Source: a virus
Direction: 5' to 3' (one strand)
Virus record (IMG/VR): IMGVR_UViG_3300045988_175865
Coordinates: 118,001-148,631 of that record
Length of the DNA stretch: 30,631 nucleotides
Part shown: positions 1,820 to 30,631 of the stretch, in pieces
How positions within the stretch are numbered: position 1 is the first letter of the stretch
Layout: each line of letters starts with the position of its first letter
Position numbers and translations under genes: made by a program
The notes under the pieces: generated by a model
The model's input: the letters and a program-made list of their open reading frames with translations, nothing else
The model's database searches: none
Told to the model about the DNA's origin: nothing

Positions 1820-2870
1820 GAAAAGTTTGAAGTTCTCGGCACTAGATCCATACATTGTAAGTAACATAGTAGAGCCTACAGAAAGTAAGAAAAGAGGATC
1901 AGATATGATAATGTGAGGCGATAATAATCGCTATCCTATTTACTTATGGGATCTATATTTAAACTGTGCAACATTACAGTCAATTATCAATGGAACTGCC
2001 GATTTTATCGTTGGAGACGATGTTATTTGTAATAAAGAGGGATTTAACGTAGTTGTTAATAAGAAAGGTGAAACGATAGTAGACATCTTTAGAAAGATAG
2101 CAATAGATAAGATGATTTTTGGAGGATATGCTGTTCAAGTAATTAGAAATATGGTTGGAGAAGTCAGTGAGATTTATCACTTAGATTTTATGAAGATCCG
2201 TTCTAATGAAAAGAATACTGTTCTTTATTATGCAGATGATTGGGAGGCTTGGTCAGTTAAGGCTTTAACTTATCCTAAATATGAGATAAATGATAGTGCT
2301 CCTGCTTCTGTAGTTTATAATAAAGGCTATGTAACAAGAAGCGTATATCCAATTCCAGTTTATGGAGCTGCTCTATTAAGTTGCGAAACTGAGAAGTGCA
2401 TTAATCAATTCCATTTAAATAACCTTAATAATGGATTTATGAGTAATGTTATTATTAACTTTAATAATGGAACTCCTACAGATGAAGCACAAGAAGAGAT
2501 TGAACGTAATATTAACGAGAAGTTCTCTGGATACCAAAATACTGGACGTATTCTTATTTCTTATAATGATTCAGATGTAAATAAGACTACTGTTGAAAGA
2601 CTTGATTCTGATGATTTCGATGAACGATATGAATCATTAGCAACTAGAACAAGAGAGCAAATATTCTGCGCTTTCAGAGCTAATCCTGTGTTGTTCGGTA
2701 TTAATTATGCTTCTGGATTCTCAAAACAAGAGTATCAGCAAGCATTTGATTTATACAATCGAACTATGGTGCAGCCAATACAAAAAGATATTTGTAAAAG
2801 TTTCGATACTATCTTTGGAATGAAAAATTCCGTTACAGTGGTACCTTTTAGTATGAATTGAAATGAATAA
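1806..2870 (+). CDS. Portal protein (354 aa)
   Basis: ATG 1806 to TAA 2868-2870, with in-frame TGA at 1914 and 2859. The N-terminal WGDNNRYPIYLWDLYLNCATLQSIINGTADFIVG and later FRANPVLFG segments look like Phage_portal-type proteins. Recognised by eye. Confidence 0.75.
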
Positions 2871-3456
2871 TTATACTGTTTATTGCCATATTAATAAATA
2901 TAATAATAAAATTTATATAGGTATTACTGGACAAGATCCTAAAAAACGTTGAGGAAATGGGAAAGGTTATAAGAATTCCTTTTTCTTTAATGCAATACAA
3001 AAATATGGCTGAGATAATTTCGAGCATAAAATCCTGTATACTAATTTATCTAAATTAGATGCAGAGCTTATAGAAATAGATTTAATACATTATTATAAAT
3101 CTATTAATAAAAGCTATAATATTGCTAATGGAGGTAATGTTACTACAGGATTAAAGATGTCAGAACAAGCGAGAAAAAACATATCACAAGGGCATATAGG
3201 ACTTAAAAGAAGTGATTCATTTAAAGAGAAGATAAGAGTTGCCAATAAAAATCGTTCTGACGAAATAAAAAGAAAACTGATAGATAGCAATAAACGTCCT
3301 ATAATTCAGCTATCATTAGATGGAGTCTTTATAAACGAATATGAGAGTATTAAAGATGCAGAGTTACAATTAGGGATATGACATCAAAATATATCTAAAT
3401 GTTGTAAAAACATCTATAAAACTGCTGGAGGATATAAATGACAGTATAAACAGTAA
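2863..3456 (+). CDS. GIY-YIG homing endonuclease (197 aa), free-standing between the portal and connector genes
   Basis: YTVYCHINKYNNKIYIGIT (GIY-YIG), KKR-W-GNGKGY (TGA 2950), KYG-W-DNFEH (TGA 3010), NUMOD3-like SEQARKNISQGH, C-terminal KTAGGYK-W-QYKQ. Four in-frame TGA; ends in TAA at 3454-3456. Confidence 0.9.
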
Positions 3457-4122: not shown

Positions 4123-4545
4123 ATGACATATTATGAAATAATCAATGGGCTAAAAGAATCTGCTCTTATGGAGCCTAATATTAATTTCGCTGGCAGTAAA
4201 GATATCTATGAGTTAAATAGCCTTCCTAATATAGATTATAATGTATTCTATATAACTCCAAATACATTTAATCTTGATGAAGATACTATTACATACTCAT
4301 TGAATCTTTACTATGTTGCCAGATGAGATGAAACAGACGAGAATCAACTTGAAGAACAGTCTGCTGGAATTTTAGCTCTTACAAATATAATTAACCGATT
4401 TAATAACACCTATCCTGATGTTCAATTATCTTACCCTTTAATATTTACTCCATTTTATCAAAAGTTCAAAGATATATGTACTGGAATATTTGTAAGAGTA
4501 GATATAATGGTAGATAATGTATTAGGAGTATGCGAAAATATATAG
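4123..4545 (+). CDS. Hypothetical virion-module protein (140 aa)
   Basis: ATG 4123 lies 1 nt after the previous stop. TGA at 4324; TAG at 4543-4545. No family recognised. Confidence 0.5.
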
Positions 4546-5108
4546 TATATATACATATATTTCCAAATGGAAAAAGGTATGTAGGGTTAACAACTCAAGA
4601 TGTTGATTCTAGATGAAGAAATGGGGAGGGATACAAACATCAGTTTGTTTATAAACCAATTAAAAAATACGGATGAAATAATATTAAACATATTATATAT
4701 TACGTAAACAATGAAACAGAAATGAAATATCTTGAAAAATACTTATTTGGTTACTATAATACTACTGATTTAAGATATGGGTATAATCGAACTGATGCTA
4801 ATAATCATCCGATATTTTCTGAAAAAACTAAAAATATTATGTCTGAACTTGCTAAAACTCGAATTGGAAATAAGAATCCATTTTATGGCAAGCATCATTC
4901 ATATGAAACTAAAAATAAAATAAGTATTAAAAATCAAAATATTAAAAATAAGCCAATTGCCCAGTATGATTTAGATGGCAATTTTATCAAATCCTATAAA
5001 AGCATACGATCCGCTTCTAGAGAACTGAGTATTGGCAGTGGTTTAATATGAGCAGTTTTGGCAGGAAGACAGTATCAAACTCATAAATTTATTTTTAAAT
5101 ATTTGTAA
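4530..5108 (+). CDS. GIY-YIG homing endonuclease (192 aa)
   Basis: KYIVYIHIFPNGKRYVGLT, DSR-W-RNGEGY, KKYG-W-NNIKH, NUMOD3-like repeats (TRIGNKNPFYGKHHS), C-terminal PIAQYDLDGNFIKSYKSI module. Three in-frame TGA; TAA at 5106-5108. Confidence 0.9.
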
Positions 5109-5764
5109 TGGAAAACAAATTAAAATGATTCGGACAGGTACTTGATTGAGTTAATAAATACGGGTTATGACAGATTATAAAAGGCGGATTTGCATTTATA
5201 TTTGTATCTTATGTCTTTATAATCTCTCTAAATCCAGGCATTATATATGATAAGGTTGCTACTTACATAGAAAATGTCCATAACGTTAAGCAAGTAATCA
5301 GACAAGATGCAGACATCAAAATACGTTACATCTTGAAAGATTTAAGAGTATCTACAAATGCAGATAGAGCTTGAGTTATTGAGTACCATAACGGTACATC
5401 TGGATTAGGAGGACTTCCATTTACATACGGAATTATGAACAATGAAGAATTAGAAGAAGGAGTATGTTCAGTATCTAGACATTATAGAGACTTCTTGTTA
5501 TCTGAGTATTTGTTTATTTTGGAGACTTCTAAACAAGGTGGATGAATAGGTAGTGTTGAGGATATAAAACAGTATGATACAAAAATGTATTATTCATTTA
5601 AATCTAATGGTGTTAATAAATTAGCTTTATTTTATTTAAAATCGGAATACAGAGATATTGGAGTAGTCGGCCTTTCATATTGTGATAATGAGATGCCAGA
5701 AGATACTTGAGTTAAATTAAGAGATGCAGGAATAAAGATAAGCATAATTTTAAATAAAAAGTAA
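5108..5764 (+). CDS. Membrane-anchored protein of unknown function (218 aa), first gene of the lysis cassette
   Basis: ATG overlaps the preceding stop (TAATG). Codon-by-codon reading is open to TAA 5762-5764, with six TGA (5126, 5147, 5168, 5372, 5543, 5708) and no TGG. N-terminal hydrophobic stretch GGFAFIFVSYVFIISL. The standard-code ORF track shows no ORF here at all. Confidence 0.7.
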
Positions 5765-5765
5765 T

Positions 5766-5927
5766 ATGAAGTATTGGGTAAAGTATTTAATCGCAGTTGT
5801 GATGATTATTGCAGTTTTGGTATTAGTAAAAGTAATTCCTTTCTGGATTACTATGGTATTACTTGCTTTAGCAGTAGGTAGCCATTTATTTTACAGATAT
5901 CTAACACTTAAAGACATTATAAAATAA
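5766..5927 (+). CDS. Holin-like small membrane protein (53 aa, two predicted TM helices)
   Basis: MKYWVKYLIAVVMIIAVLVLVKVIPFWITMVLLALAVGSHLFYRYLTLKDIIK: two hydrophobic helices and a charged C-terminus. Its stop overlaps the endolysin ATG (TAATG). Confidence 0.5.
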   Translation: MKYWVKYLIAVVMIIAVLVLVKVIPFWITMVLLALAVGSHLFYRYLTLKDIIK

Positions 5928-6376
5928 TGAAGTATTTTACAGTAGAGGAGTTAACTGAATCATCTACAGCAATTAAGGAAAATATAGACAACACTCCAAG
6001 TAAGGAGATCACTGAACACCTGATTGAGTTAATAGAGGAACTCTTAGATCCTATTAGAGAAAAATGGGCAGAGTATTGTAATATTAATAAACTTGGAAAT
6101 CCAGCAATAAGTGTAAGTTCAGGTTATAGATGCAAAGAGCTTAATAAAGCTGTAAATGGTTCAGTTACATCTGCACATATGACGGGTTATGCTGCAGACC
6201 TTCAAAATGTCTCTGGAAGTAGAGAAGAGTTTTATCAATTCCTATTAAACTTTTTGAAGGATAGAAATTTCGATGAATGTTTTATTGAATATAATAAGTA
6301 CACTAAGTGAATACACATAGCATTATATAATAGTAAAAAATTACAAAGAAAAAAAGTAGGTAAATTATATGTATAG
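5927..6376 (+). CDS. Endolysin, peptidase M15 family (D-Ala-D-Ala/L-Ala-D-Glu type zinc peptidase), 149 aa
   Basis: SGYRCKELNKAVNGSVTSAHMTGYAADL matches the M15 SxHxxGxAxD zinc-site motif. After TGA 6308-6310 the frame continues W-I-H-I, matching the conserved C-terminal W-x-H zinc ligand. Ends in TAG at 6374-6376. Confidence 0.85.
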
Positions 6377-6585
6377 TATCTATGTTCATATAAATAAATT
6401 AAATCATAAAATGTATTTTGGGATCACCAAACAAAATCCAAAAAGACGTTTTAGAGACGGAGAAGGTTATAAAAGTTGTACAAAATTCTACAAAGCAATA
6501 CAGAAATATGGCTGATAGAAGTGGAATTTATCGTACAGTTGGAACTTCTAAAAAAGCCTATGGTTATAGGTGAGAATATATTTAA
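6369..6585 (+). pseudogene. Degenerate GIY-YIG homing endonuclease remnant
   Basis: The first frame, 6369-6518, encodes MYSIYVHINKLNHKMYFGIT...GEGYKSCTKFYKAIQKYG-W and then stops at TAG. A +1 frame, 6514-6585, encodes ...KKAYGYR-W-EYI stop, the typical C-terminal end of the intact endonucleases. The middle of the gene is missing. Confidence 0.7.
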
Positions 6586-6600
6586 GATAAAATAAAGTAA

Positions 6601-6630
6601 GGGAGCCTTTTGAGCTCCCTTTTCTTTTTA
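6601..6630. terminator. Bidirectional rho-independent terminator between the convergent lysis and leftward operons
   Basis: GGGAGC (6601-6606), 7-nt loop, GCTCCC (6614-6619), followed by TTTTCTTTTT. Located where + and - strand genes converge. Confidence 0.7.
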
Positions 6631-7084: not shown

Positions 7085-7116
7085 CAAATATAATAATTAT
7101 ATTTTAATTTTCCAAA
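7085..7116 (-). promoter_or_regulatory. Bacteroidota-type promoter (TTTGGAAA, 20 nt, TATATTTG) directly upstream of gene 6914-7081
   Basis: The reverse complement of 7085-7116 is TTTG-gaaaattaaaatataattat-TATATTTG. This is the same -33/-7 architecture and 20-nt spacer as the three promoters at 8990-9191. Confidence 0.55.
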
Positions 7117-8831
7117 TTAAATACGAATTTTTTATTTAAAATTACATAACCTTCTACTTGTTTACCTTCAATTCTTTTTTGGCACTTTTTAACGTCGTAG
7201 TATTTGTCAATCTCAGTAGCTTTAGGAGCTGTAGTAATTCCTGCAACAGTATAAGCATCTTTTATATACTTCTTAATATCTGCATTAGAATATCACATTC
7301 CAAGGCTTAAATGCTCATTTAATTTCTTTGCAGCTTTGTTATCTGTAGATTTATTAGAAGCTTTGAGTAATTCATCTTTAATTGCGCTAATGCAATACTT
7401 TAAACTTGCCATTTTCTCAAATCCGAGCTTTGTAATAGCATCCATTAACCAAGGATATTTAATCTTAGCATTATCTAAGATAGGAGTTGCAAATCTATAT
7501 TTTACTTCCCATTCAGCTCTAACATCTTTAATAAGCTCTTTAAATGGTTTGGTATCTGAATCAAAGTCAATCTTAATTGAATTATCCTCGCATTCTACAA
7601 CCTTTTTAAAGCCATTCTTTAAATACTCATTATTAAGATTAGTTCTAATTGAATATAAACCTCTTGTAACCTTGAAGTTAAATATATCGACTTTAGCCAT
7701 ATTAGGATCAAACGTAAAGGTATAATCATCATTTACTTGAATATAAGTATCACTGGTAAACTCTTTAAGTTTCTTTCTTGCAACTTCTGGCATTGCATTA
7801 TAAGCCTCAACTGCAATTTTAGTCTCTTCGATATTCTGGAGATTCTTCTTTCTAAAATCCTCATAAGATACCTCAGCGTATCTTGTTGCAGAATATAAGT
7901 GAGTAATCCAATTTAAATACTTACTATTTCTAATTCTACCAGCAATCTGCTGAATTGAAGTTGAAATATCAAGTAATGTCTGAGCTTTCTGAGCATCCGA
8001 AACTACTACAATACGTCCATTTTCATCATAAATATCAGAACCTTCAAATACTGTAGAAGTTAATAAGTTGATCTTTTTAGGTTCATCTAATACAGTAGAG
8101 TTCTTAATTGTAAGTTTAGTCTTGTTATTCTTTGAATAGATAACTCTTGTATTTGATTCATTTAATTTAGCCTTCTGAATAAGGTTCTTTATAAAGTCAA
8201 CTGAGTTAACAAAGATATATACATTACCTTCAACTTGATTATTTAAAACTGCAGTTATAAGTTTAATAGTTGAAGCCTCAACATTCTTACATTTAACAGC
8301 CTGAACTTTAGTCTCTATAACATCATCCCATTCTTGTTTTACTAATGGAAGATCTTTTAATTCATCAAGTACAAACTCTTCTTCAAGTGGAGTTGCAGTC
8401 ATAAAAGTATACTCTTTAAAGAGCTTATAGTTATCAAGTACAGGTTTAATAGCATCCTTTCTAAAGCTATACTGATTAAAAAGAATATGATATTCATCTA
8501 CTAATAAACTATAATCTTTAGGATTAACTGCTGAAATAACTTTTGGTAAAGAGTTATAAGTAACAATGATTTTAGGGCAATTAACTCGTTTTACATAATC
8601 TTTAATCTCTGCAATAGTTACTCCAGCAAATACACCGAAGATCTCTTCTGTACGTCTTTCATTAGGATACTGTTGAATCTTGTTCTCAACTAAACTGGTA
8701 AAAGGAACACAAATAACATAAGGCTTGTTACATTCAATAGCCATAGAAGTTCCACCACAACCAACTTTTCCTTTGTCAAATAAGCAGTTAGTAGGTAATT
8801 CATTGATTAAATTATTTAAATAAGTTTTCAT
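7104..8831 (-). CDS. SF2 (DEAD/DEAH-like) helicase, 575 aa including a 62-aa extension past an in-frame TGA
   Basis: Track ORF 7293-8831 carries LLVDEYH (motif II), MTATP (motif III) and QQIAGRIRN (motif VI). Motif I is atypical (GKVGCGGTS). The frame stays open through TGA (complement of 7293-7295) for 62 more codons, to the TAA complement at 7104-7106. Confidence 0.75.
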
Positions 8832-9236: not shown

Positions 9237-9416
9237 ATGAAAACTAAACAAATTGAAGCACTTGAATATTTTCTTAATATATTAGATGGTAAGATTACTG
9301 AAGATGGTTCTATTGAGAAAGCTCAAGAATTATGTAATGAGGCATTAAAGGAGATTGAAACCAATGAAAAGGTAAAGAAATCCTCTTGGTTTTTTGGTTT
9401 AGGTATTTCTTTCTAA
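9237..9416 (+). CDS. Early hypothetical protein (59 aa)
   Basis: ATG 9237 to TAA 9414-9416. First ORF downstream of P-R. No family recognised. Confidence 0.5.
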   Translation: MKTKQIEALEYFLNILDGKITEDGSIEKAQELCNEALKEIETNEKVKKSSWFFGLGISF

Positions 9417-9427
9417 TATATTTAATT

Positions 9428-9667
9428 ATGAAAAAGATAAATAAAATATTAGCTGGATTATTAGTACTTAGCTTTATTATAGCTGGTATTAGAGTATATA
9501 ATGCTTATGGAGACTACCAAACTAAAACATTTGAGCTTAGATTAGAACAGGCAGAACTTCAGCATAAATTAGACTCTGTAATGTGGTATAATCCTGGAAG
9601 TTCAGAAGTATCTGAATTATATGAACAGTATTGTGATGTAACCTTAAAAATTCATAATGTAAGATAA
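9428..9667 (+). CDS. Early membrane-anchored protein (79 aa)
   Basis: ATG 9428 (internal Met of track ORF 9386-9667). The N-terminal segment KKINKILAGLLVLSFIIAGI looks like a signal anchor. Confidence 0.55.
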   Translation: MKKINKILAGLLVLSFIIAGIRVYNAYGDYQTKTFELRLEQAELQHKLDSVMWYNPGSSEVSELYEQYCDVTLKIHNVR

Positions 9668-10886: not shown

Positions 10887-11115
10887 TATTGACGATTTAC
10901 TTACTGAGTATGAAATAGACTATAGTATGTTTACAAATATGGATGATAGACTATTAAGTATATATCCAAAATGACTTGAGCTTAATAAGGCAGATAAGAC
11001 AGTAATCATATTATATGCTAAATATCACAGTTATAGAGAAGTGGGAAAAATATTGGGAATTAGTCATACTACAATTCAAAGATTTATTAAACAAATAAGA
11101 GAGAGATTATGTTAG
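10870..11115 (+). CDS. Sigma-70 region-4-like helix-turn-helix protein (81 aa)
   Basis: LNKADKTVIILYAKYHSYREVGKILGISHTTIQRFIKQIRERL resembles sigma region 4.2 / LuxR-type HTH. It is a separate frame, with TAA immediately before its ATG. TGA at 10972 is in frame. Confidence 0.45.
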
Positions 11116-11438
11116 AATTATTTATAATAGCAGTAATAATAGTCTTTATAATTGATTTATCTGGGGCTTTGGATAGTTTTAAACATAGTATTTGAAAAAG
11201 ACTATTTAAAGGTATGCCTTATAAAGAAGATTGAAGACTAAAACCTTTAGATTGCAGTTTATGTATGACTTGGTGAATTGGATTAATATATATTCTTATT
11301 ACAAGTCAATTTTCAATTTTAATGGTTGGATATATTGCACTATTAGCATTTATGACTCCAATTATTAAAGATATTATGATATTATTAAAAGATGCATCTA
11401 CTAAGCTGATAGATGTTATATACAAACTTATTAATTAA
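11109..11438 (+). CDS. Integral membrane protein with a CxxC motif (109 aa)
   Basis: ATG 11109 to TAA 11436-11438, with TGA at three positions, including a TGG-TGA pair that reads WW. Hydrophobic N-terminus and centre; KPLDCSLCMTWW motif. Not in the standard-code track. Confidence 0.6.
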
Positions 11439-11527
11439 AAATTATATTTTATGGAAACAGAAGTTATTTATCACTACAAGAATGGAAAGTTAATTTCTAT
11501 ATTTACTTATACTAAAAAGTGCTAATT

Positions 11528-11863
11528 ATGAAACAATTAACAGAAGAGCAGTTTAAATATTTAAGAGGATTTGAAGATAGATTTGTAACTGCAACTAAGT
11601 CTAATTATTGCAGAAATGTACAAAAGCAGGATGTAATTAAGCTTAAAGAGATTTATGAATGTTTAATTGAACAAGAATATAGAATGAGCATAGCTTGTGC
11701 TACTTGTATACTTAATCTTATAAAGAGGATTGCCCCAATCTATTTTGAATATCAAGAAAAACTAAAGGAAAATGAAAGTAAAGAATCAGGAACTGCCGAA
11801 GAAAACAGGGAGGCCAAGAAAGGAAGAGGTAGAAAAGGAACAAATAGACGAAGTAAAGACTAA
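11528..11863 (+). CDS. Hypothetical protein (111 aa) with a basic tail
   Basis: ATG 11528 within track ORF 11519-11863. The last 92 nt overlap the TerS frame. Confidence 0.5.
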   Translation: MKQLTEEQFKYLRGFEDRFVTATKSNYCRNVQKQDVIKLKEIYECLIEQEYRMSIACATCILNLIKRIAPIYFEYQEKLKENESKESGTAEENREAKKGRGRKGTNRRSKD

Positions 11864-29800: not shown

Positions 29801-30631
29801 TTCTGATAAATTAGCGTTTATAAAGAGCACTGATTTATATGGAGAAATAAGTAAAAACAACGGAGAATTGTGAACTGAAGATCCTAAGGGGAGTAGTAGA
29901 CTTATAAGTTTATTTACTTCACAAGATAATAAGTATGGTCTACAATTAATAGATACAGAAGATGTTAGCACAACCACTCAATATAGACTTACTATAAATA
30001 ATAGTGACAGGTATTGTACTATTGATTGAATATATATATATATGTCTACTAACGGCTCTGGTTATAATTGCTTTATAGAAGCATATAATCCTAGTTCTGA
30101 ATCTTGAGATATAATATCTCAGGATGCTGTTTTACAGGGGTGATCGGGACCTAATTTTAGAGCTTTGACATCTTCTATATATTATAACAATTCCCCAAGT
30201 ACAGCTTCTCAATATTCGAAACTAAGGTTTACATTTTCAACTAGAAGTGTTAGTGAGAACTATAGTGGACAATTGACAGTCTATAGAATTTCTGGATATG
30301 GTACTTATGGCTGGAGAATGCCTAACAATATGTCTAAAGTAGGTCAAATATATTCTTGGGATAATGCTCAAAATGTTTCTTTTCCAGGAAGTGTATCGGC
30401 TTGAAAATTTATCAGTAATGGGGGTACTAGTACTAATGTAACAATGGGAGATGGATCTCTAAAAGATCTTAAAACTAAACAACTAGTTGTAAACGGTACT
30501 ATAAATAATTTTTATTCATCAGATAGTGTTGAGGTTAGACTTTACGCTCCTACTTCAGGTGGTACTAGTGGGCAGATTCTTGTATCTAATGGTAATAATG
30601 CTCCTAACTGAGCATCCTTAGATAGTTTAGG
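26889..30631 (+). CDS. Tail fibre protein (1293 aa in the circular genome; cut by the window end, true stop equals 922-924)
   Basis: Track ORFs 26889, 27411, 28713, 29400 and 30165 are all in one frame, separated only by TGA (27192, 28602, 29340, 29871 and five more). Repeated fibre modules: TKTSQLTNDSGYIT / TKVSELTNDSNFVT, QPVGDYA, LVSGTNIKTINGTAILGSGNI / LVSGESIRTINNLSLLGEGNI, GTAGQVLISNGSSTPEW. Confidence 0.85.
29847..30631. repeat. Second copy of the terminal assembly overlap (equals 1-785)
   Basis: See 1-785. Confidence 0.95.

Follow-up and report, generated by a model that had tools for sequence, protein, structure and literature searches.

The stretch of viral DNA analyzed here (the window: 30,631 nucleotides [nt], positions 118,001 to 148,631 of the IMG/VR record IMGVR_UViG_3300045988_175865) carries at 5108-5764, on the plus strand, a gene for a protein of 218 amino acids (aa) that probably is a class III holin of the T4/T5 type. 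The gene proposed to encode this T-type, bitopic membrane protein runs, with TGA read as tryptophan, from an ATG at 5108 to a TAA at 5762-5764. Re-translation gives 218 sense codons followed by the TAA, with six in-frame TGA, zero TGG, and zero other stops, in agreement with the coordinates and counts of a preliminary description of the window made from its letters alone. The TGA triplets are codons 7, 14, 21, 89, 146, and 201 (nt 5126, 5147, 5168, 5372, 5543, and 5708). The start codon has one base in common with the TAA of the upstream gene (5106-5108), the stop codon is followed by the ATG at 5766 of a 53-aa open reading frame (ORF), and the TAA of the latter (5925-5927) overlaps by one base the ATG at 5927 of an endolysin gene. 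The same description spoke of translational coupling of these three genes; the packing with the starts at 5766 and 5927 is observed, and it is from this tight packing that we infer the coupling. It also called the gene hidden, which holds for translation table 11, where no ORF of at least 60 aa is present between 5051 and 5927 on either strand, but not for public gene calls, where homologues are already found.

The two genes that follow complete a short lysis cassette. The first one (5766-5927, plus strand) encodes the 53-aa protein, a holin-like accessory of the cassette with two transmembrane domains (TMDs; hydrophobic segments at residues 8-24 and 26-42), conserved in eight variants across the clade that uses genetic code 4. 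It has zero Pfam, PHROG, or PADLOC matches and is possibly a co-holin or an antiholin. The second one (5927-6376, plus strand) encodes an endolysin of the Peptidase_M15_3 family (Pfam PF08291, E = 5.3e-17; phrog_894 endolysin, E = 4.9e-26) that lacks both a signal sequence and a TMD. This enzyme needs the TGA at 6308-6310 as tryptophan to reach its C-terminal 'WIHIA', the standard-code ORF ending at 6310. The segment lost in that case includes a His, and a standard-code translation would predict an inactive enzyme.

The assignment of TGA to tryptophan is based on a comparison of close relatives and of 76 distant homologues, mostly standard-code. Codon 7 (5126-5128) is TGG in the relatives L003-L006, W being the commonest residue among standard-code relatives. 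Codon 89 (5372-5374), within an ADRAW motif, is also TGG in L003-L006 and corresponds to F, Y, or W in the distant relatives, and codon 146 (5543-5545), within a GGW.G motif, is again TGG in L003-L006, with W in 52/76 and F in 19/76 of the standard-code relatives. The other three are less regular: codon 14 (5147-5149) is TGA in the six close relatives compared and L, F, I, or M in distant ones; codon 21 (5168-5170) is replaced by CTA or TTA (Leu) in relatives, with W in 18/76 and F in 15/76 of the distant ones; and codon 201 (5708-5710) is TGA in all close relatives, in a column that is variable in distant relatives and is the only TGA column where Gly is frequent. Because TGG occupies codons 7, 89, and 146 in close relatives and W, F, Y, or L is found in standard-code homologues, TGA is read here as Trp (code 4). 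Code 25, in which TGA means Gly, was ruled out, given that TGG stands in for TGA in relatives and that the aligned residues are W, F, Y, or L. The usage extends over the window, with 61 TGA against 70 TGG in 32 genes (TGA being 47% of the Trp codons) and TGA as Trp in 21 of these genes, on both strands.

The preliminary description had pointed to the 218-aa gene as the one with the highest TGA density in the genome. The ranking stands, at 2.74% barely over the 2.73% of the ORF at 11109-11438, but the significance that it implied finds no support. The use of TGA for six of six Trp codons has P = 0.01, uncorrected for 32 genes, and the relatives of the gene carry just 2-5 TGA each. A special meaning of the six-TGA load, unconserved in relatives and non-significant after multiple testing, was thus dropped; it looks like drift and not like a regulatory feature. 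A lysis model based on a code switch, of the Borges type (PMC10746230), was also rejected, there being no suppressor tRNA and the TGA codons being spread across genes. Neither a tRNA (by ARAGORN) nor an Rfam family was detected in the complete genome of 29.8 kb. Nothing in the phage explains the decoding of TGA, which would depend on a host that translates it as Trp or on another mechanism. Relatives of the lysis protein occur in standard-code Bacteroides.

Conservation of the frame in relatives, on which the preliminary description had made its proposal depend, is found. Fourteen homologues of 217-223 aa, with 61-96% identity and located on contigs of about 30 kb, keep the frame unbroken, and one extra match is a fragment of 145 aa. 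The homologue with 62% identity differs by 56 synonymous and 83 non-synonymous codons and that with 70% identity by 73 and 66, respectively, so that, as judged from these comparisons, synonymous differences are in excess. Because the frame is kept in the full-length homologues and synonymous changes are in excess, 5108-5764 is, on comparative evidence, a real and conserved gene that is readable only with TGA as Trp.

Beyond these close homologues, a profile search against 1.84 billion cluster representatives retrieved a family of at least 794 representatives (clusters at 50% identity) at E<=1e-3, and the best 150 of them are nearly all of 215-290 aa and matched over most of their length. The preliminary description could not place the soluble domain in any family, and this remains so for Pfam, NCBIfam, and PADLOC, in none of which the protein has a family; nonetheless, it belongs to this large unannotated family and matches phrog_30125 (E = 2e-9), of unknown function, which is the sole named match. 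Among 80 sampled members of the family, none has a Pfam family, and only two show a faint GAF_2 match (best E = 0.0032). Source annotations read 'hypothetical protein', and one Bacteroides member bears, wrongly, the UniRef label 'Histidine kinase', no kinase or other output domain being present in the 218-aa protein. A profile search against PDB sequences gave no meaningful match, and a protein-pattern scan of genome contigs found no relatives.

The architecture of the protein was obtained from a confident AlphaFold2 (AF2) model (mean predicted local distance difference test [pLDDT] score of 96.1), calculated from an 80-sequence alignment with the 96%-identical homologue P0001 as query. Four elements are observed: a helix at residues 2-18, a helix at 20-41, a helix at 44-83, and an alpha/beta domain at 87-216. 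The first one (5111-5161) is an N-terminal amphipathic helix, predicted to be cytoplasmic, with a hydrophobic moment of 0.60, compared with 0.51 for the equivalent helix of the T4 holin T; across the family, the mean moment is 0.50 against 0.27 for shuffled sequences, being above the shuffles in 76/77 members. The second (5165-5230) is the single transmembrane helix. Its best 19-residue hydropathy window, residues 23-41, has a mean Kyte-Doolittle value of 2.11 and is the only hydrophobic segment of the protein, which agrees with the N-terminal hydrophobic helix noticed in the preliminary description. K25 marks the inner boundary of the TMD and an N42-P43 motif the outer one, with K25 conserved in 49/80, N42 in 64/80, and P43 in 58/80 members, and a single hydrophobic helix is found in 63/80. 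The flanks of the TMD have a net charge of +1.2 on the N-terminal side and of -0.4 on the C-terminal side, and the N-terminal flank is the more positive in 58/80 members, the opposite being the case in six. By the positive-inside comparison, the predicted topology is N-in/C-out, which would place the globular domain in the periplasm.

A long 'bridge' helix (residues 44-83, 5237-5356; pLDDT above 95) leads from the TMD to the globular domain and contains two near-invariant residues, H58 (72/80) and R65 (73/80). The globular domain itself (residues 87-216, 5366-5755; predicted to be periplasmic) carries the ADRAWVIEYHNGT motif, and the soluble part of the protein comes to about 175 aa, close to the roughly 170 aa previously estimated. 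In a Foldseek comparison with the PDB, GAF domains fill nearly the whole list of 50 matches (lowest E = 7e-7, at a target-normalized template modeling [TM] score of 0.75), and in the BFVD database, phage 'GAF domain-containing' proteins come first (E = 6e-13 to 1e-11). According to the model, the domain has the GAF fold, while Pfam GAF, GAF_2, and GAF_3 give no match for the protein. The closest fold matches are the GAF domains of cyanobacteriochromes and phytochromes (PDB codes: 7LSD and 6MGH), over residues ~60-216, with E = 7e-7, a probability of 1.00, and a target-normalized TM score of 0.75. An earlier model of low confidence (pLDDT 60, from 13 close homologues) matched instead the LuxR-type ligand-binding domains of SdiA, RhlR, and TraR. 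However, sequence identity to GAF domains is just 10-16%, and the domain differs from the named ones in being predicted to be periplasmic and membrane-anchored. Of 13 near-invariant positions in the family, eight are polar or charged (H58, R65, R87, E92, H94, N95, E113, and D157), and this polar cluster suggests a specific binding site.

This architecture resembles that of the T4 holin T, in which an N-terminal amphipathic helix, essential for pore formation, precedes a single TMD, a bridge helix, and a C-terminal globular domain (PMC12162936). The order of elements in our AF2 model is the same, the length of T is also 218 aa, and its topology is N-in/C-out, as predicted for the window protein. 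Foldseek against BFVD retrieved 'Holin [Proteus phage phiP4-3]' (E = 2.5e-5), 'Class III holin [Proteus phage Stubb]' (E = 3.5e-5), and 'T holin lysis mediator [Serratia phage PS2]' (target-normalized TM score of 0.72), with T-type matches ranging from E = 2.5e-5 to 2.7e-3 and ranking below the phage 'GAF domain-containing' proteins. At the level of sequence, hhalign of the family against 25-27 T holins gave a colinear alignment of 159-184 columns (P = 0.002-0.005) that outscores one reversed and 20 shuffled controls. Moreover, a hidden Markov model (HMM) of T holins, run with filters off against 1,653 sequences (163 from the family, 120 T holins, and 1,370 other phage ORFs), placed 16 family members as its top non-self matches (best E = 7e-5), with alignments that run from the amphipathic helix through the TMD into the bridge helix. 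The reciprocal search of T5-like holins with the family HMM gave two colinear segments, one of them including 'tgADavFVvkY' against 'tNADRAWVIEY', so that a T.AD..[FW]V[VI].Y motif is found within the weak colinear similarity between the family and T4/T5-type holins. The sub-threshold HMM scores between the family and T holins are of 10-19 bits. Taken with the model, these similarities make a remote homology of the family to T4/T5 holins likely.

The gene order points in the same direction. In close relatives, the portal and DUF6712 genes are followed by a gene of 141-142 aa, the 218-aa gene, the 53-aa gene, and Peptidase_M15_3, in this order, and among the homologues with 61-96% identity, the gene is always ahead of the M15 endolysin. 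The succession of this gene, the small holin-like gene, and M15 is thus conserved, and both the synteny and the TMD bear out the view of a membrane-anchored gene at the head of the lysis cassette. In T5-like phages, a T-holin is likewise followed by an M15 peptidase. A wider survey, in which viral contigs were scanned for a degenerate DNA motif, yielded 93 non-identical family genes, 49 of them high-scoring and with downstream sequence. An endolysin is located at position +1 or +2 in 29/49, and the adjoining endolysins belong to three unrelated types: M15_3, DUF5675, and GH108+PG_binding_3. DUF5675 has been described as a C82-like putative lysin (bioRxiv 10.64898/2026.04.11.717860). Starts and stops overlap within these cassettes. 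In those with DUF5675 or GH108, the endolysins are signal-less, a lipoprotein with a C-terminal TMD, u-spanin-like, is encoded just downstream (11/49 family genes), and apart from it the family protein is the only TMD protein. Also, the relative L007, of 70% identity, lacks the 53-aa gene, so that its M15 endolysin is accompanied by no TMD protein other than the family one. In the Nonlabens phage P12024S, the family gene lies directly 5' of an M15 peptidase.

The u-spanin-like genes found 3' of endolysins in Bacteroides-type prophages (L053, 6102-6617; L060, 8988-9620; L087, 8385-8864) encode proteins with an N-terminal lipobox (e.g. LLGSC or LLASC) and a C-terminal TMD, for which Pfam gives only spurious SLATT_4 or ESSS matches. 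In L007, the place of the 53-aa gene, between the holin-like gene and M15_3, is taken by a 230-aa basic protein without a Pfam match (10920-11612).

The cassettes also bear on one of the functions suggested in the preliminary description, that of a spanin analogue. The protein could be an i-spanin-like component that spans the envelope and aids the disruption of the outer membrane, considering its N-terminal TMD, its predicted N-in/C-out periplasmic body, the 40-residue helix after the TMD, and its position in the lysis cassette. However, the periplasmic part is a globular, GAF-like alpha/beta fold and not a coiled coil, no ORF with a lipobox (a possible o-spanin) is present in or near the gene, and in relatives, a u-spanin-like lipoprotein with a C-terminal TMD is encoded by a gene of its own, located past that of the endolysin. 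This role is therefore very improbable.

Several observations weigh against a T-type holin. For the sequence comparison, the hhalign probability is just 7-12%, and Pfam PF11031 (Phage_holin_T) matches neither the protein (E<=1) nor any of the 80 members (E<=0.1). As for the fold, the solved periplasmic domain of T4 T (PDB codes: 6PXE, 6PX4, and 6PSK) is not among the 50 PDB matches listed, and the periplasmic disulfide of T (C175-C207) has no conserved Cys-pair equivalent in the family; only C192 is kept in the close clade, and the C-terminal domain of family members mostly has one or two Cys at unconserved positions. The polar near-invariant set of T is different from that of the family, and the 13 near-invariant residues of the latter suggest a binding site of a kind not known for T. 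With respect to context, 20/49 of the high-scoring genes have no recognized endolysin adjoining, Microcystis phage Ma-LMM01 gp021, outside the 49-gene survey, sits among unrelated genes, and the clade of the window has, next to the endolysin, a second and classic-looking small protein with two TMDs that could be the real holin.

The genes without an adjoining endolysin include most of a subfamily of ~196 aa (60-78 bits; L068, L076, L088, and similar environmental viral contigs), which is preceded by a 144-aa protein with three TMDs and a 75-100-aa u-spanin-like lipoprotein with a TMD, and is followed by Zn-ribbon and sigma-70 region-2-containing genes instead of an endolysin. These cases, together with Ma-LMM01 gp021, would fit a membrane-anchored sensor or exclusion protein, acting in superinfection exclusion, in envelope modification, or as a SpoIISA-like toxin, whose proximity to lysis genes would be incidental. 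A further point for this alternative is the UniRef label mentioned above. Also, SpoIISA of Bacillus subtilis is a membrane-attached toxin of GAF fold that damages membranes, has been proposed to be holin-like, and is neutralized through the binding of a partner to its GAF domain (PMC3057836). By analogy, it shows that a membrane-attached GAF fold can damage membranes, but SpoIISA has three TMDs, a cytoplasmic GAF domain, a chromosomal location, and a link to sporulation, its likeness to the window protein being one of fold and description only. On the other hand, family genes repeatedly adjoin endolysins of three unrelated families, and u-spanin-like genes as well, with overlapping starts and stops, PADLOC gives no match, and no kinase or other output domain is found. 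T4 t itself is not adjacent to its endolysin, and therefore non-adjacency in some phages is not decisive. An incidental neighbor of the lysis genes is thus rather improbable, and superinfection exclusion, one of the roles previously suggested, is not the best fit to the architecture, the T-holin similarity, and the cassettes, which favor a holin.

The main rival to a T-type holin is an antiholin or regulator of lysis timing, the 53-aa protein being the actual holin, delayed or triggered via the GAF-like domain of the 218-aa protein. The 53-aa protein has the size and the two-TMD hairpin of a class II holin, immediately precedes the endolysin, and is kept within the code-4 clade, and small multi-TMD partners occur elsewhere (119 aa with three TMDs in L087, 78 aa with two TMDs in L110, and the 144-aa protein with three TMDs of the ~196-aa subfamily). 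Moreover, GAF-like domains are typically sensors, and the cluster of near-invariant polar residues hints at a binding site. However, the Bacteroides-type DUF5675 and GH108 cassettes combine cytoplasmic endolysins with no TMD protein other than the family protein and the u-spanin-like lipoprotein, and the 53-aa gene is missing in L007. In addition, the most T-holin-like region of the protein is the core of amphipathic helix and TMD, which is hole-forming in T4 T (PMC12162936). An antiholin or regulator would then be a serious alternative, although a clearly less probable one. Thus, none of the functions put forward in the preliminary description is the best fit, a T-type holin accounting better for the data.

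Among other class III holins, the phiKZ gp142 protein (class IIIb) also has a single TMD in N-in/C-out orientation and one large soluble regulatory domain (PMC12894885), although in gp142 this domain is N-terminal and cytoplasmic, whereas in the window protein it is C-terminal and predicted to be periplasmic, as in T4 T. Class III holins were previously known only from T4-like or T5-like phages (PMC12894885). In contrast, the family described here is found in code-4 phages of about 30 kb, in Bacteroides prophages, and in Flavobacteriia phage or cyanophage genomes. No RI or RIII antiholin was identified in the phage of the window.

If the protein is a T-type holin, it would insert into the cytoplasmic membrane as N-in/C-out, with the globular domain facing the periplasm. 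Late in infection, it would build up harmlessly in this membrane and oligomerize, and at a set time it would form holes, probably through a swing of the amphipathic helix into the membrane like that proposed for T4 T. The M15 endolysin, which has no signal sequence, would then gain access to the cell wall. Timing would be set or modulated by the globular domain, as is the case for the periplasmic domain of T4 T via the antiholin RI, and the 53-aa protein would be an accessory co-holin or antiholin. From the sequence and the model, we infer the topology, the release of the M15 endolysin, and the regulation by the GAF-like domain, hole formation being a prediction. By inspection, no dual-start holin/antiholin motifs are present, the start codon being the only Met before residue 110. 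In a further version, which we consider unlikely, the family would consist of ligand-gated holins, the predicted periplasmic GAF-like domain being a true sensor of a ligand or signal. Then, H58, R65, R87, E92, H94, N95, E113, and D157 would bind a small molecule, a metal, or an envelope-derived cue, and this binding would set the moment of hole formation.

With regard to the host, matches of the family in bacterial assemblies are in Bacteroidales in eight of 10 cases, and a clade with 34-38% identity is located in Bacteroides chromosomes. In the 25 nt 5' of 30 start codons of the window, Shine-Dalgarno motifs are nearly absent and the sequence is A/T-rich, a pattern typical of the way in which translation starts in Bacteroidota. 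A diderm host from this group is plausible. The large subunit of the terminase (TerL) has at most 28% identity to that of any isolate.

The window corresponds to a complete, circularly permuted genome with a unit of 29,846 bp, its last 785 bases (29847-30631) being an exact copy of the first 785, and a long ORF from 26889 continues across the junction into 22-924. Directly upstream of the 218-aa gene, a GIY-YIG/NUMOD homing endonuclease is encoded (4530-5108, plus strand; NUMOD1 and NUMOD3 in Pfam, phrog_314). It is missing at this place in L003-L007, where the 218-aa gene comes directly after the 141-142-aa gene, and is an insertion peculiar to the window and outside the lysis module. The insertion point is exactly between a conserved 153-aa gene and the holin-like gene. 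Three such homing-endonuclease genes are present in the window (~2860-3456, 4530-5108, and 6370-6590), the third one being decayed to a 49-aa N-terminal fragment that ends in 'KYGW*' and a C-terminal remnant. Beyond it, a bidirectional hairpin resembling an intrinsic terminator was detected at 6599-6621 by a terminator scan of both strands (AAGGGAGC...GCTCCCTT, with T-runs on both strands), and it forms the boundary between the rightward structural and lysis operon and the leftward gene at 7104-8831. Two more ORFs encode predicted membrane proteins. The one at 9386-9667 (93 aa, with a probable start at an internal Met, 'MKKINKILAGLLVLSFIIAG...') has a TMD at its N-terminus and, after it, a charged helical region, and is the first gene of a rightward block past a divergent intergenic region; a similar ORF is found in L007 (12741-12872, minus strand). 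The ORF at 11109-11438, of similar TGA density to the holin gene, encodes 109 aa with three predicted TMDs and three TGA, and belongs to the block at 9.4-11.4 kb, well away from the lysis cassette.

In our literature searches, no paper on class III holins in Bacteroidota was found. With its distinct conserved polar cluster, the family would form a widespread branch of the T-holin design, highly divergent and still unannotated. For the phage of the window, a standard-code annotation erases the proposed holin and truncates the endolysin. If the assignment is true, the T-holin design would exist as a large family of at least the number of clusters given above, with Bacteroides prophages, phages of Flavobacteriia, cyanophages, and small TGA-recoded phages as its carriers, and a GAF-like sensor fold would be suggested for the regulatory domain of T-type holins. 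In the case that these holins were ligand-gated, Bacteroides prophages and the code-4 phage would have a built-in environmental input to the timing of lysis, with no separate antiholin. Finally, the assignment would fill the missing-holin slot in the lysis cassettes of many Bacteroidota phages and provide new sets of holin, endolysin, and u-spanin for study.

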